Source of the DNA: Escherichia coli
GTDB lineage: Bacteria; Pseudomonadota; Gammaproteobacteria; Enterobacterales; Enterobacteriaceae
Length of the DNA: 64,000 bases
NCBI RefSeq assembly: GCF_036507355.1
Contig: NZ_AP027877.1
Strand: one strand, 5' to 3'
Under the pieces are notes generated by a model. That model was given only the letters and a program-made list of their open reading frames with translations, had not been told where the DNA came from and made no database searches. This document shows positions 12,236-48,976 of the stretch, piece after piece (the first letter of the stretch is position 1; every line of letters begins with the position of its first letter). Made by a program: the position numbers and the translations under genes.

Positions 12236-12382
12236 TCATCTGATTTACAAAACACGCTAATTTGTCTTCCATAAACCAAGGCGATTAAGATTTATACATA
12301 ATGCGCTGCATTGAGGAATTCCCTGAATGTGACGCAAATCACTTCAAAGAGTGAGCAACAGTCAGTATCATCATGTGAGTTA

Positions 12383-12418
12383 AACCCTCGCCGCCTGACG
12401 GTGAGGGTTTTCTTTTGG
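12383..12418 (+). terminator. Probable rna terminator hairpin
   Basis: AACCCTCGCCG...CGGTGAGGGTT imperfect inverted repeat followed by TTCTTTTGG. Confidence 0.5.
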
Positions 12419-12464
12419 GTATGTTTATCTGCGACACTCGCAGTACCGACGACATGGAGTAAAA

Positions 12465-17371: not shown

Positions 17372-17742
17372 CTATACTTCCTCCGTGTTTTCGATGAGAT
17401 GTAAGGTAACCAATTTTTGCCGATTCGGCTAATGCGTTTCCATTATCAAATCGATAAGTTTTACCTTACAACCTTCGTAAGACAACTTTGTGAACTTTGC
17501 ACCGCCAGCGGCGATAAAAAGTAAAATGGCCCCCTTTCCAGGTGACCGTGTAATCTGAACTACCCTTTGGTATCTTCAGCGCCTGCCTGCAGGCAGAGGT
17601 GTTGCCCTTACAAATGCAACAACGACATGGATTACAACACCCTCATAAACAAAGGGCAATCACCTGATCTAAGCTCTTACCTATGACAGTGATAGGTTAT
17701 GCCTTTTACTCGACTTTTGCACTGACTGAAAAGGACAAATTA
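17372..17742. promoter_or_regulatory. Divergent ahpC / dsbG promoter region (OxyR-controlled ahpC promoter expected here)
   Basis: 370-bp gap between divergent starts; OxyR regulation of ahpCF is established knowledge; site not mapped from sequence. Confidence 0.45.
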
Positions 17743-43440: not shown

Positions 43441-43605
43441 ATTTGCAATAGCGTAATGGCGCGCCGTGGGAAGCGCGGACATTAATTAACCAACTGCACT
43501 GCGTGTCTTTCAGGATCAAAGGTTTTCGCGGTAGCGGGATGCGTCGTGTTGATGACGACCATGCCCGACAGTTGCAATTCGTGGCAAAAATGCAGGAATA
43601 AAACA

Positions 43606-45846
43606 ATGAACAAGAAGATTCATTCCCTGGCCTTGTTGGTCAATCTGGGGATTTATGGGGTAGCGCAGGCACAAGAGCCGACCGATACTCCTGTTTCACA
43701 TGACGATACTATTGTCGTTACCGCCGCCGAGCAGAACTTACAGGCGCCTGGCGTTTCGACCATCACCGCAGATGAAATCCGCAAAAACCCCGTTGCCCGC
43801 GATGTGTCGGAGATCATCCGTACCATGCCAGGCGTTAACCTGACCGGTAACTCCACCAGTGGTCAGCGAGGGAATAACCGACAGATTGATATTCGCGGTA
43901 TGGGTCCGGAAAACACGCTGATTTTGATTGACGGCAAGCCGGTAAGCAGCCGTAACTCGGTGCGTCAGGGCTGGCGTGGCGAGCGCGATACCCGTGGTGA
44001 TACCTCCTGGGTGCCACCTGAAATGATTGAACGTATTGAAGTTCTGCGTGGTCCGGCAGCTGCGCGTTATGGCAACGGCGCGGCGGGCGGCGTAGTTAAC
44101 ATCATTACCAAAAAAGGCAGCGGCGAGTGGCACGGCTCCTGGGACGCATATTTCAATGCGCCAGAACATAAAGAGGAAGGTGCCACCAAACGCACTAACT
44201 TTAGCCTGACCGGTCCGCTGGGCGACGAATTCAGCTTCCGCTTGTATGGCAACCTCGACAAAACTCAGGCTGACGCGTGGGATATCAACCAGGGCCATCA
44301 GTCCGCGCGTGCCGGAACGTATGCCACGACGTTACCAGCCGGGCGCGAAGGGGTGATCAACAAAGATATTAATGGCGTGGTGCGCTGGGACTTCGCGCCT
44401 CTGCAATCACTCGAACTGGAAGCGGGTTACAGCCGCCAGGGTAACCTGTATGCGGGTGATACCCAGAACACCAACTCTGACGCTTACACTCGCTCGAAAT
44501 ATGGCGATGAAACCAACCGCCTGTATCGCCAGAACTACTCGCTGACCTGGAACGGTGGCTGGGATAACGGCGTGACCACCAGCAACTGGGTGCAGTACGA
44601 ACACACCCGTAACTCGCGTATTCCGGAAGGTCTGGCGGGCGGTACCGAAGGGAAATTTAACGAAAAAGCGACACAGGATTTCGTCGATATCGATCTTGAT
44701 GACGTGATGCTGCATAGCGAAGTTAACCTGCCGATTGATTTCCTCGTTAACCAGACGCTGACGCTGGGTACGGAGTGGAATCAGCAACGGATGAAGGACT
44801 TAAGTTCCAACACCCAGGCACTGACCGGAACGAATACCGGTGGCGCTATTGATGGCGTGAGTGCCACCGACCGTAGCCCGTATTCAAAAGCAGAAATTTT
44901 CTCGCTGTTTGCCGAAAACAACATGGAGCTGACTGACAGCACCATCGTAACGCCGGGGCTGCGTTTCGATCATCACAGTATTGTCGGCAATAACTGGAGC
45001 CCGGCGCTGAACATATCGCAAGGTTTAGGCGATGACTTCACGCTGAAAATGGGCATTGCCCGCGCCTATAAAGCGCCGAGCCTGTACCAGACTAACCCGA
45101 ACTACATTCTCTACAGTAAAGGTCAGGGCTGCTATGCCAGCGCGGGCGGCTGCTATCTGCAAGGTAACGATGACCTGAAAGCAGAAACCAGCATCAACAA
45201 AGAGATTGGTCTGGAGTTCAAACGCGACGGCTGGCTGGCGGGCATCACCTGGTTCCGTAACGATTATCGCAATAAGATTGAAGCAGGCTATGTTGCTGTA
45301 GGGCAAAACGCAGTCGGCACCGATCTCTATCAGTGGGATAACGTGCCGAAAGCGGTGGTTGAAGGTCTGGAAGGATCGTTAAACGTACCGGTTAGCGAAA
45401 CGGTGATGTGGACTAATAACATCACTTATATGCTGAAGAGTGAAAACAAAACCACGGGCGACCGTTTGTCGATCATCCCGGAGTATACGTTGAACTCAAC
45501 GCTGAGCTGGCAGGCACGAGAAGATTTGTCGATGCAAACGACCTTCACCTGGTACGGTAAGCAGCAGCCGAAGAAGTACAACTATAAAGGTCAGCCAGCG
45601 GTTGGACCGGAAACCAAAGAAATTAGTCCTTACAGCATTGTTGGGCTGAGCGCGACGTGGGATGTGACGAAGAATGTCAGTCTGACCGGCGGCGTGGACA
45701 ATCTGTTCGACAAACGTTTGTGGCGTGCGGGTAATGCCCAGACCACGGGCGATTTGGCAGGGGCCAACTATATCGCCGGTGCCGGGGCGTATACCTATAA
45801 CGAGCCGGGACGCACGTGGTATATGAGCGTAAACACCCACTTCTGA
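43606..45846 (+). CDS. fepA: TonB-dependent ferric enterobactin outer membrane receptor FepA
   Basis: ORF 43546..45846 trimmed to MNKKIHSLALLVNLGIYGVAQA (signal peptide); TonB box DTIVVTA; C-terminal aromatic residue. Confidence 0.95.
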   Translation: MNKKIHSLALLVNLGIYGVAQAQEPTDTPVSHDDTIVVTAAEQNLQAPGVSTITADEIRKNPVARDVSEIIRTMPGVNLTGNSTSGQRGNNRQIDIRGMGPENTLILIDGKPVSSRNSVRQGWRGERDTRGDTSWVPPEMIERIEVLRGPAAARYGNGAAGGVVNIITKKGSGEWHGSWDAYFNAPEHKEEGATKRTNFSLTGPLGDEFSFRLYGNLDKTQADAWDINQGHQSARAGTYATTLPAGREGVINKDINGVVRWDFAPLQSLELEAGYSRQGNLYAGDTQNTNSDAYTRSKYGDETNRLYRQNYSLTWNGGWDNGVTTSNWVQYEHTRNSRIPEGLAGGTEGKFNEKATQDFVDIDLDDVMLHSEVNLPIDFLVNQTLTLGTEWNQQRMKDLSSNTQALTGTNTGGAIDGVSATDRSPYSKAEIFSLFAENNMELTDSTIVTPGLRFDHHSIVGNNWSPALNISQGLGDDFTLKMGIARAYKAPSLYQTNPNYILYSKGQGCYASAGGCYLQGNDDLKAETSINKEIGLEFKRDGWLAGITWFRNDYRNKIEAGYVAVGQNAVGTDLYQWDNVPKAVVEGLEGSLNVPVSETVMWTNNITYMLKSENKTTGDRLSIIPEYTLNSTLSWQAREDLSMQTTFTWYGKQQPKKYNYKGQPAVGPETKEISPYSIVGLSATWDVTKNVSLTGGVDNLFDKRLWRAGNAQTTGDLAGANYIAGAGAYTYNEPGRTWYMSVNTHF

Positions 45847-45885
45847 TGCTAACGTCAGATTGTTGACAAAGTGCGCGTCGTTCAT

Positions 45886-45984
45886 GCCGGATGCGGCGTG
45901 AACGCCTTATCCGGCCTACAAAAATCTTGCCAATTCAATATATTGCAGGACCATGTAGGCCTGATAAGCGTAGCGCATCAGGCA
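45886..45984. repeat. REP/BIME-type palindromic units between fepA and entD
   Basis: GCCGGATGCGGCGTGAACGCCTTATCCGGCCTAC and GTAGGCCTGATAAGCGTAGCGCATCAGGCA are typical E. coli REP sequences in opposite orientation. Confidence 0.7.
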
Positions 45985-46011
45985 GTTTTGCGTTTGTCAT
46001 CAGTCTCGGAT

Positions 46012-46641
46012 ATGGTCGATATGAAAACTACGCATACCTCCCTCCCCTTTGCCGGACATACGCTGCATTTTGTTGAGTTCGATCCGGCGAATTTTTGTGA
46101 GCAGGATTTACTCTGGCTGCCGCACTACGCACAACTGCAACACGCTGGACGTAAACGTAAAACAGAGCATTTAGCCGGACGGATCGCTGCTGTTTATGCC
46201 TTGCGGGAATATGGCTATAAATGTGTGCCCGCAATCGGCGAGCTACGCCAACCGGTGTGGCCTGCGGAGGTATACGGCAGTATTAGCCACTGCGGGGCTA
46301 CGGCATTGGCCGTGGTTTCCCGTCAACCGATTGGCGTTGATATCGAAGAAATTTTTTCTGCGCAAACAGCGACCGAATTGACAGACAACATTATTACACC
46401 AGCAGAACACGAGCGACTCGCAGACTGCGGTTTAGCCTTTTCTCTGGCGCTGACACTGGCATTTTCCGCCAAAGAGAGCGCATTTAAGGCAAGTGAGATC
46501 CAAACTGATGCAGGTTTTCTGGACTATCAGATAATTAGCTGGAATAAACAGCAGGTCATCATTCATCGTGAGAATGAGATGTTTGCTGTGCACTGGCAGA
46601 TAAAAGAAAAAATAGTCATAACTCTGTGCCAACATGATTAA
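46012..46641 (+). CDS. entD: Enterobactin synthase phosphopantetheinyl transferase EntD
   Basis: ORF 45871..46641 trimmed to MVDMKTTHTSLPFAGHTLHFVEF...; the longer ORF would read through the REP elements. Confidence 0.9.
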   Translation: MVDMKTTHTSLPFAGHTLHFVEFDPANFCEQDLLWLPHYAQLQHAGRKRKTEHLAGRIAAVYALREYGYKCVPAIGELRQPVWPAEVYGSISHCGATALAVVSRQPIGVDIEEIFSAQTATELTDNIITPAEHERLADCGLAFSLALTLAFSAKESAFKASEIQTDAGFLDYQIISWNKQQVIIHRENEMFAVHWQIKEKIVITLCQHD

Positions 46642-46762
46642 TTGACAACATCTGGTACGATTCGCCCGCAGCCATCACTGACTGCGGGCGAAAGTGTAAA
46701 GCAGGTGCCTTACCACTCTGACCTGACAACCGGATATGCGGGGATTGCTCCCCGCACAACGG

Positions 46763-46915
46763 CTACTTCTTCGGTTCGTAAGCGAGAACAGCCTTAAACT
46801 CAATATTACGTTCCTTTACGGTGAACTCACACAGCGAGTCTCCGACCAGAAGCGTAAATCCCAGCACCGTCAAACACAGCACTATGACTGCCACAAGGGC
46901 ATATTTCGTCAGCAT
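46763..46915 (-). CDS. hokE: Hok-family type I toxin, copy 1 (50 aa)
   Basis: [50 protein letters not shown]; GGAGG Shine-Dalgarno 8 nt upstream of the ATG. Confidence 0.85.
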
Positions 46916-46954
46916 GTTTATATTGCCTCCATGCGAAGAAGGGACTACCATCCG

Positions 46955-47020
46955 AGTTGTTGAGGCTCGGAGTGGCAGCCCCAGGATTGATAGAAATATC
47001 TCCTGGGGCTTCATCTTTCC
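46955..47020 (+). ncRNA. Expected Sok-type antisense RNA of hok copy 1 (coordinates approximate)
   Basis: Inferred from hok/sok architecture: antisense RNA overlapping the leader and upstream ATG of the hok mRNA; no promoter or ends mapped. Confidence 0.25.
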
Positions 47021-47265
47021 AGACCTCAGAGTTAACCTGAAACCGGAAAGCTTCAGGCACCCGCCGTTATCTTACCCTTCCTTAGCAAAATAGCTGTTTA
47101 TTTATACAGTGAATCCTGTTTCGGACTTCTGTCGGCAAAACTCATCATTGCTCTTAAAACGAAATCGCCCGCAGCCATCACTGACCGCGGGCGAAAGTGT
47201 AAAGCAGGTGCCTTACCATCCTGACCTGACAACCGGATATGCGGGGATTACTCCCCGCACAACGG

Positions 47266-47418
47266 CTACTTCTTCGGTTCGTAAGCGAGAACAGCCCTGA
47301 ACTCAATATTACGTTCCTTCACCGTAAACTCACACAGCGAGTCTCCGACCAGAAGCGTAAATCCCAGTACCGTCAAACACAGCACTATGACTGCCACAAG
47401 GGCATATTTCGTCAGCAT
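47266..47418 (-). CDS. Hok-family type I toxin, copy 2 (50 aa, K41R relative to copy 1)
   Basis: [50 protein letters not shown]; same SD context as copy 1. Confidence 0.85.
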
Positions 47419-47457
47419 GTTTATATTGCCTCCATGCGAAGAAGGAACTACCATCCA

Positions 47458-47525
47458 AATTGTCTGGTTTGGAGTGGCAGCCCCAGGGTTGATAGAAATA
47501 TCTCCTGGGGCTTCATCTTTCCAGA
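47458..47525 (+). ncRNA. Expected Sok-type antisense RNA of hok copy 2 (coordinates approximate)
   Basis: Same inference as for copy 1. Confidence 0.25.
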
Positions 47526-47848
47526 CCTCAGAGTAAACCTGAAACCGGAAAGCTTCAGGCACCCGCCGTTATCTTACCTTTGCTTAGCAAAATAGCTGTT
47601 TATTTATACAGTAAGTCCTGTTTCGGACTTCTCACTCCCCATTTGATCAACTGAAGCTGAACCCGTTTTTTTCTGCATGCCTCAATCGTCAAAATTCTTC
47701 GCCACCAGCCAGCCGTGCCATAACTTGTCACATTGCAAAAGTAGCCAATTTGCTTCAGTCACCATCACCAAAAAAAGAAATATTCCAGAACTTCCGCATC
47801 TCGCCCAGCCGCTCCGACTTCTATACTGAATAGAAAACGCCAACATAA

Positions 47849-48976
<1,128 letters not shown>

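Follow-up and report, generated by a model that had tools for sequence, protein, structure and literature searches.

The closest described relative of the element discussed here is the Sok-binding stem-loop in the hok mRNA of plasmid R1 and its family, described in the work that PMC1635323 cites as Franch et al. 1997, Gultyaev et al. 1997 and Franch et al. 1999; going by the reference list of the same paper, covariation in the hok mRNA family was also published in 1997. In these systems the 3' end of the full-length hok mRNA folds back and blocks both translation and Sok binding, and the antisense-binding stem-loop is present only in the 3'-trimmed, refolded mRNA (PMC1635323; PMC9841398). The mok SD/dcb stem is described in PMC9841398. 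The R1 Sok RNA is built from a single-stranded 5' tail followed by a terminator stem-loop (PMC1635323). In the hok/sok model this tail makes the first contact with the loop of the target stem-loop, at whose base the upstream Shine-Dalgarno sequence is located. Another relevant comparison is with the Sib/Ibs paralogues, which are likewise near-identical cis-antisense copies with their differences concentrated in the recognition regions; for these, repression of the cognate partner only has been shown experimentally (PMC2943612), whereas the discrimination between SokE and hokE copies reported below is a calculation.

The window, that is, the whole stretch of 64,000 nucleotides of Escherichia coli DNA that was analysed, contains a chromosomal member of this family between entD (45871-46641, preceded by fepA at 43546-45846) and ybdK (47858-48976). 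A 503-bp tandem repeat occurs there in two copies (46662-47130 and 47165-47632) that are 96% identical, with 24 of 469 alignment columns differing. Each copy holds on the minus strand an intact ORF for a 50-aa Hok/Gef toxin, hokE, at 46763..46915 in copy 1 and at 47266..47418 in copy 2, the latter with a single K>R replacement. The copy 1 protein is 100% identical over its full length to HokE proteins with PF01848. RefSeq names the equivalent gene hokE, and in many genomes the matching region has two such annotations. The matches are to E. coli chromosomes, with O157:H7 the best at 99.0%, and the two-copy query is covered to at least 80% in 3566 of 5426 complete E. coli genomes. The mRNA leaders are matched on the minus strand by the Rfam family RF01794 at 46907..47062 (86.5 bits) and 47410..47564 (80.2 bits), the gathering score being 59.

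The hokE/sokE locus of K-12 (b4415/b4835) has the same flanking genes and the same leader. In MG1655 (L078) it is a single copy, with IS186 located 19 bp after the hokE stop codon, whereas the window has two intact tandem copies. The hairpin apex of K-12, CCAAA-CCCGAACAA-UUUGG, also differs from both alleles of the window. Since the target hairpin, its covariation in the family and the locus itself are already in the literature, in RefSeq and in Rfam, the discovery value of the element is small. Its interest lies in being a clean case of natural compensatory evolution, in which a single helix has undergone two double substitutions between paralogues only 500 bp apart.

On the plus strand, copy 1 reads TCCGAG (46951-46956), TTGTTGAGG (46957-46965) and CTCGGA (46966-46971), and copy 2 reads TCCAAA (47454-47459), TTGTCTGG (47460-47467) and TTTGGA (47468-47473). 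The preliminary description had placed TCCGAG-N9-CTCGGA and TCCAAA-N8-TTTGGA at equivalent sites, and the copy alignment confirms that the two stems occupy homologous positions of the repeat. It had also stated that two positions changed on both arms with pairing kept. This is indeed the case: the four arm substitutions (G>A, G>A, C>T and C>T) make up two pairs, each going from G-C to A-U, and the number of uncompensated arm positions between the copies is zero.

Because hok is encoded on the minus strand, the relevant RNA is CUCCGAG-loop-CUCGGAU in copy 1. Read as mRNA from 46982 to 46941, this copy is GGGGCUGCCA-C-UCCGAG-CCUCAACAA-CUCGGA-UGGUAGUCCC, which is predicted to form a hairpin of 42 nt (46941..46982, minus strand; −26.2 kcal/mol, z −6.8) with a 10-bp lower helix, a bulged C, a 6-bp apical helix and a 9-nt loop, CCUCAACAA. 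The lower helix includes a GGGG Shine-Dalgarno-like run. The corresponding hairpin of copy 2 is 41 nt long (47444..47484, minus strand; −20.3 kcal/mol, z −4.7) and has an 8-nt loop, CCAGACAA. The stem that was noted first is thus the 6-bp apical helix (with its loop at 46951..46971, mRNA UCCGAG/CUCGGA, in copy 1 and at 47454..47473, mRNA UCCAAA/UUUGGA, in copy 2, both minus strand), which tops a longer hairpin of 41-42 nt that lies inside the RF01794 consensus structure. Folding of the two leaders, which had been put forward as a check, gives the stem in both the MFE and the centroid structure of each; the 66-nt segment of copy 1 has −27.4 kcal/mol (z −6.0) and the 65-nt segment of copy 2 −21.5 kcal/mol (z −3.5).

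The loops of the two copies are not of the same type. That of copy 1 has the YUNR (U-turn) motif in the form CUCA, as is found in 36 of 57 family hairpins, while the copy 2 loop (47460-47467) contains no U and therefore no YUNR motif, which sets it apart from the R1 type. It resembles CCUAGACAA minus its U. Lacking the U-turn, copy 2 might bind Sok more slowly and be regulated differently.

A scan with one genome per species yielded 77 Hok loci in Escherichia, Citrobacter, Klebsiella, Enterobacter, Kluyvera, Pantoea, Erwinia and other genera. A set of 31 HokE-like leaders was aligned with MAFFT, using no structure information (alignment A4), and RNAalifold recovers the apical stem from this alignment. 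The pairs are CG in 24 leaders and UA in 6 at columns 49/65; GC in 18, AU in 10 and other in 2 at 50/64; AU in 30 at 51/63; and AU in 24, CG in 2, GC in 1 and other in 3 at 52/62. The pairs 50/64 and 52/62 are the two that changed between the copies of the window, so that the wider sampling shows the same two pairs switching between G-C, A-U and C-G.

A covariance model built from A4 extends the comparison to 67 hok leaders from many enterobacterial genera (alignment A5), and the hokE leaders align with R1-like leaders in this one model. In A5, 89.6% of the cells are paired, as against 32-42% when the partners are slid, double changes occur in 16 of 20 pairs, and double-changed cells number 17, 28, 21 and 29 at the four apical pairs; these counts are inflated, as A5 was fitted to the structure, and A4 and the single-sequence folds serve as a guard. 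The covariation score is 0.489 compared to 0.166 for shuffled alignments, and none of 500 shuffles reaches 0.489. When folded alone, all 57 distinct family hairpins give one hairpin with the expected apex and at least 10 pairs (median z −3.4).

We conclude, with a probability of about 0.9, that the stem is the apical helix of the antisense-target hairpin in the hok mRNA leader, as in the published hok/sok model, and that the two double changes from G-C to A-U are compensatory substitutions preserving this mRNA helix. The original proposal, that the hok leader or Sok target region contains an RNA stem with a function, is thus supported by both folding and covariation. It is important to point out that the covarying stem is the known Sok-target hairpin rediscovered and not a new element. 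It has the same position as the Sok-binding stem-loop of R1 and the hok family, between a conserved upstream box AGCCCC...GAGGC and the hok Shine-Dalgarno sequence, and in both R1-like and hokE leaders the base of the stem holds an upstream Shine-Dalgarno-like run and the loop faces the 5' tail of Sok.

If hokE follows the R1 paradigm, the full-length mRNA would be closed by its own 3' end. Slow trimming of the 3' end up to the GCGGGG...CCCCGC hairpin would then free the 5' end and the hairpin region and allow refolding, upon which the target hairpin would form and present its loop. The Sok tail would pair with the loop and the 5' arm and invade the lower stem that holds the Shine-Dalgarno-like GGGG, thereby blocking an upstream translation event to which hok is coupled, and hence hok translation, and the Sok-hok mRNA duplex would be cut by RNase III. 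In such a scheme the apex nucleotides would be subject to several constraints at once, namely hairpin pairing, fold-back pairing, the sequence of the Sok tail and the sok promoter.

The position of Sok is predicted from the K-12 annotation, transferred to the strain of the window, and from a promoter motif. The MG1655 annotation has sokE at 607733-607792 and the start of hokE at 607836. The 5' end of Sok thus falls on the 7th nucleotide of the loop, 44 nt before the hokE AUG. By this measure Sok would begin in the window on the plus strand at G46959 in copy 1 and at G47462 in copy 2. The predicted SokE of copy 1, about 60 nt long (46959..47018), folds with its first ca 10 nt, GUUGAGGCUC, as an unpaired 5' tail and with a terminator stem-loop ending in UUCAUCUUU; the predicted SokE of copy 2 (47462..47520) has a 5' tail beginning with GUCUGGUUUG. 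Both are thus predicted to consist of a free 5' tail, a terminator stem-loop and a U-rich end, the same architecture as that of R1 Sok.

This arrangement bears on a reading that is compatible with the Sok-target hairpin, according to which the differences at the apex were selected chiefly so that each Sok recognises its own hok, which would insulate the two copies, with the compensation in the stem being secondary. We regard it as possible but doubtful. Of the 24 columns that differ between the copies, 7 are concentrated in a stretch of 15 at the hairpin apex, where the Sok tail meets its target (permutation P=0.0003). The calculated cognate duplexes, −47.3 kcal/mol for Sok tail 1 with target 1 and −42.2 kcal/mol for Sok tail 2 with target 2, are stronger than the non-cognate ones, −26.9 kcal/mol for Sok tail 1 with target 2 and −32.6 kcal/mol for Sok tail 2 with target 1. 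The apex differs between the copies in 10 of 10 two-copy Escherichia genomes inspected, a small sample, and the Sib/Ibs discrimination through variable recognition domains provides a precedent (PMC2943612).

Neutral drift of the loop would, however, fit the same data, as in a cis-antisense arrangement a loop mutation changes both partners and leaves the loop free to drift. Moreover, 11 tail nucleotides are shared by the two copies, so that non-cognate pairing is calculated to be substantial, with G·U pairs helping Sok tail 2 on target 1. On these model energies, selection for insulation of the tandem copies is a tentative and rather improbable suggestion. The stricter form, in which the loop and the top pairs constitute a specificity code, the copies are kept different and each SokE represses only its own hokE, we consider unlikely. 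If it did hold, the compensatory changes would be the trace of repeated re-coding under diversifying selection. In either case, tandem hokE/sokE offers a cheap system in which to ask whether copies of a type I toxin-antitoxin system are insulated.

For the Sok-target hairpin itself, the overlap of the two genes provides a simple rationale for the compensation. A mutation in the loop or in the 5' arm alters Sok and its target together, and their complementarity is therefore kept automatically. The same mutation breaks the intramolecular helix, so it is only the stem that needs a compensating mutation in the 3' arm.

We have also considered the full-length form of the mRNA (about 407 nt). When it is folded whole, the probability of the apical pairs is 0.00 in copy 1 and 0.04 in copy 2, and it rises to 0.89-1.0 when 60 nt are cut from the 3' end. 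The stem is thus predicted in the 3'-processed mRNA and not in the full-length one. The predicted loss of the hairpin in the full-length mRNA, and its gain on trimming, agrees with the published hok/sok model, the hokE hairpin being predicted, like that of R1, only after removal of the 3' end. In both copies the in silico folds show the tac/fbi closure, with mRNA nt 1-10 (GCGGGUGCCU) pairing with nt 354-363. The GGGGCU run pairs with an upstream AGCCCC in the full-length and centroid folds and with a downstream AGUCCC in the hairpin fold.

The 3'-terminal fold-back segments (46701..46737 in copy 1 and 47204..47240 in copy 2, minus strand), comprise the last ca 37 nt ahead of the terminator hairpin; their predicted partners are the 5' end and the whole target-hairpin region (46950-46976 and 47453-47478, respectively). 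Within this segment the copies differ only by AG to GA, a change that moves the pairing into another register. In Escherichia the cognate fold-back duplexes have −25 to −31 kcal/mol compared to about −13 kcal/mol for the non-cognate ones; elsewhere the picture is mixed, with a clear signal in some other lineages.

It may be asked if the constraint on the apex could be the long-range pairing with the mRNA 3' end rather than the local hairpin. In the full-length MFE structure of copy 1, nt 89-115, which comprise the hairpin region, indeed pair with nt 330-353, and over the 31 loci the cognate duplexes are stronger than the non-cognate ones (−18.1 vs −13.5 kcal/mol, P=0.0003). However, the 3' segment bases opposite the changed positions are the same in both copies. 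With the G>A changes in the 5' arm a pair is lost there (A×C in place of G97-C345), and the C>U changes in the 3' arm are no more than tolerated, as G·U. Since its partner bases are unchanged, the long-range pairing cannot explain the joint change of both arms, and we have rejected it as the cause of the covariation. The cognate signal is also absent in several of the 31 loci (L006, L023 and L024). We consequently consider this reading very improbable.

Since the complement of a hairpin is itself a hairpin, it could be argued that the stem is a structural element of Sok itself. For the plus strand of copy 1 the fold has −22 kcal/mol (z −2.7); that of copy 2, however, is no better than shuffled sequences (z −0.6). 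By its K-12 annotation, the sokE 5' end lies inside the loop, so that Sok carries the loop and the complement of the 5' arm but not the other arm. As Sok is without one arm, the stem belongs to the hok mRNA, in the form of an antisense-target hairpin. In addition, the predicted Sok folds leave this region as a single-stranded tail, as in R1 Sok (PMC1635323). The stem being owned by Sok is thus rejected as very improbable.

The complement of the 3' arm is instead taken up by the −10 box and the start region of the sok promoter. The predicted promoters, read from the sequence as TTGCCT-17-TACCAT, are located on the plus strand at 46923..46951 in copy 1 and at 47426..47454 in copy 2. In copy 1 the −10 box is complementary to the AUGGUA of the hairpin 3' arm, and the −35 box overlaps the hok Shine-Dalgarno sequence GGAGGCAA. 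A published set of RpoD-holoenzyme sites includes this motif for the ybdK/sokE spacer (PMC3946193). A consensus promoter scan of 46600-47700 called no promoter; the sok promoter was missed because only 8 of 12 consensus positions match.

Another option is that the paired changes arose by chance, or incidentally when alleles that already existed recombined, and that pairing was not under selection. Both alleles are in fact old and widespread and not new in this genome, and other genomes hold a recombinant that breaks two pairs (see below). On the other hand, the chance that four random substitutions among the 12 arm positions complete two pairs is 15/495 (0.03), and it falls to roughly 0.003-0.013 when the complementary base is demanded. 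The same pairs switch repeatedly in separate genera, and the slid-partner controls described above lose most of the pairing. These figures support the preliminary view that neutral drift is unlikely, and we judge a chance origin to be highly improbable.

Natural alleles within and near Escherichia also include states between those of the two copies. The arms CCGAA/UUCGG, fully paired, are found in L009 and L027; CCGAA/CUCGG, with an A·C at the closing pair, in L002, L003 and L084; CCGAG/CUCGG, fully paired, in copy 1 of the window; CCAAA/UUCGG, with an A·C at the third pair, in L010 and L025; and CCAAA/UUUGG, fully paired, in copy 2 and in K-12. The most parsimonious interpretation of these sequences is that each window allele would be two steps away from a common paired state, via an A·C intermediate. 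Such one-step A·C intermediates, and also a broken recombinant allele, persist in other genomes, which adds to the value of the case.

The frequencies of these alleles in E. coli were counted as exact 59-mers in the 5426 genomes, where sampling is clonal and uneven, so that the counts are not independent events. CCGAG/CUCGG is present in 1102 genomes, CCGAA/CUCGG in 144, ACCUACCCAAA...UUUGG in 2267, CCAAA-CCAGACAA-UUUGG with ...UAGUCCC downstream in 704 (copy 2 of the window has ...UAGUUCC), and the recombinant CCCAAA...CUCGGA, with two A·C, in 114. By these counts the fully paired alleles vastly outnumber the broken ones, which speaks against a chance origin, although the clonality of the sample must be kept in mind here too.

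In the recombinant, the 5' arm and the loop come from one allele (ACCUACCCAAA-CCUGAACAA) and the 3' arm, CUCGGA, from another. It is a natural uncompensated variant with two A·C mismatches in the apical helix and was seen in L081 (E. coli FDAARGOS_448), in the entD-proximal hokE copy. About 3% of the E. coli copies, by exact-allele count, have uncompensated apical pairs (144 + 114 genomes). The existence of these copies means that a copy can be retained without strictly needing the apical helix. The chromosomal hok loci assayed so far were unable to mediate post-segregational killing and have been suggested to be inactive (bioRxiv 10.1101/2025.08.07.668861). Selection on the hairpin structure may be weak or episodic.

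Finally, a coding constraint, through mok or an N-terminal extension of Hok, was rejected as the source of the paired changes, as the only conserved AUG is located downstream of them and any frame running across the loop is shifted by its indel. A 70-codon mok frame of the R1 type, running from the 5' arm of the hairpin through hok, was not found, and in copy 1 the mok frame has no AUG, GUG or UUG after the Shine-Dalgarno run. The 1-nt indel in the loop puts the two copies in different frames. In R1-like leaders the apical 5' arm carries the mok AUG (UAUG...CAUA), whereas the 5' arm of the E. coli HokE group has no AUG.

Unlike R1, the HokE group has an invariant AUG in the 3' arm, at 46949-46951 in copy 1 and 47452-47454 in copy 2 (minus strand). 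It is present in 31 of 31 A4 leaders and is the complement of the sok −10 box, TAnCAT. In 20 of the 31 leaders a 12-codon ORF starting at this AUG ends at a UGA that overlaps the hok start (AUGCUGA), and in the other 11, both window copies included, the AUG is in frame with hok; in E. coli this frame amounts to 12 residues preceding Hok. A coupled upstream ORF of another form in the hokE leader is possible. In a Klebsiella subgroup an AUG occurs in the 5' arm, and in L007, the single leader inspected manually, it shares the reading frame of hok, which probably explains the many 67-aa database entries.

A number of observations concern the annotation of the locus. RF01794, although titled 'sok antitoxin', matches the hok-coding strand over the 157 nt that extend from the 5' end of the mRNA up to the AUG of hok. 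The family therefore models the hok mRNA leader and not the antisense Sok of ca 60 nt, and annotations based on it may have the wrong strand and name. RefSeq (PGAP) also calls a 'hypothetical protein' of ca 90 aa antisense to hokE and its leader, often frameshifted or with an internal stop; in L079-L086 this call corresponds to 47239-47595 and 46736-46963 of the window (plus strand). This is probably a spurious ORF, predicted where the locus encodes structured RNA.

Insertion sequences have repeatedly entered the hokE locus (L086 and L078). In L086 (E. coli WP3-S18-ESBL-08), IS150 interrupts the leader of the ybdK-proximal copy. In L083, L085 and L086 the flanking gene is not entD but one for an SDR-family oxidoreductase. 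Elsewhere in the window, three further Rfam matches score above the respective gathering scores: the ES036/CssrF sRNA in the fepA-entD spacer (45921-45962, plus strand, 40.5 bits), the rnk leader (12311-12419, plus strand, 124.9 bits) and STnc70 (17516-17609, minus strand, 45.3 bits).
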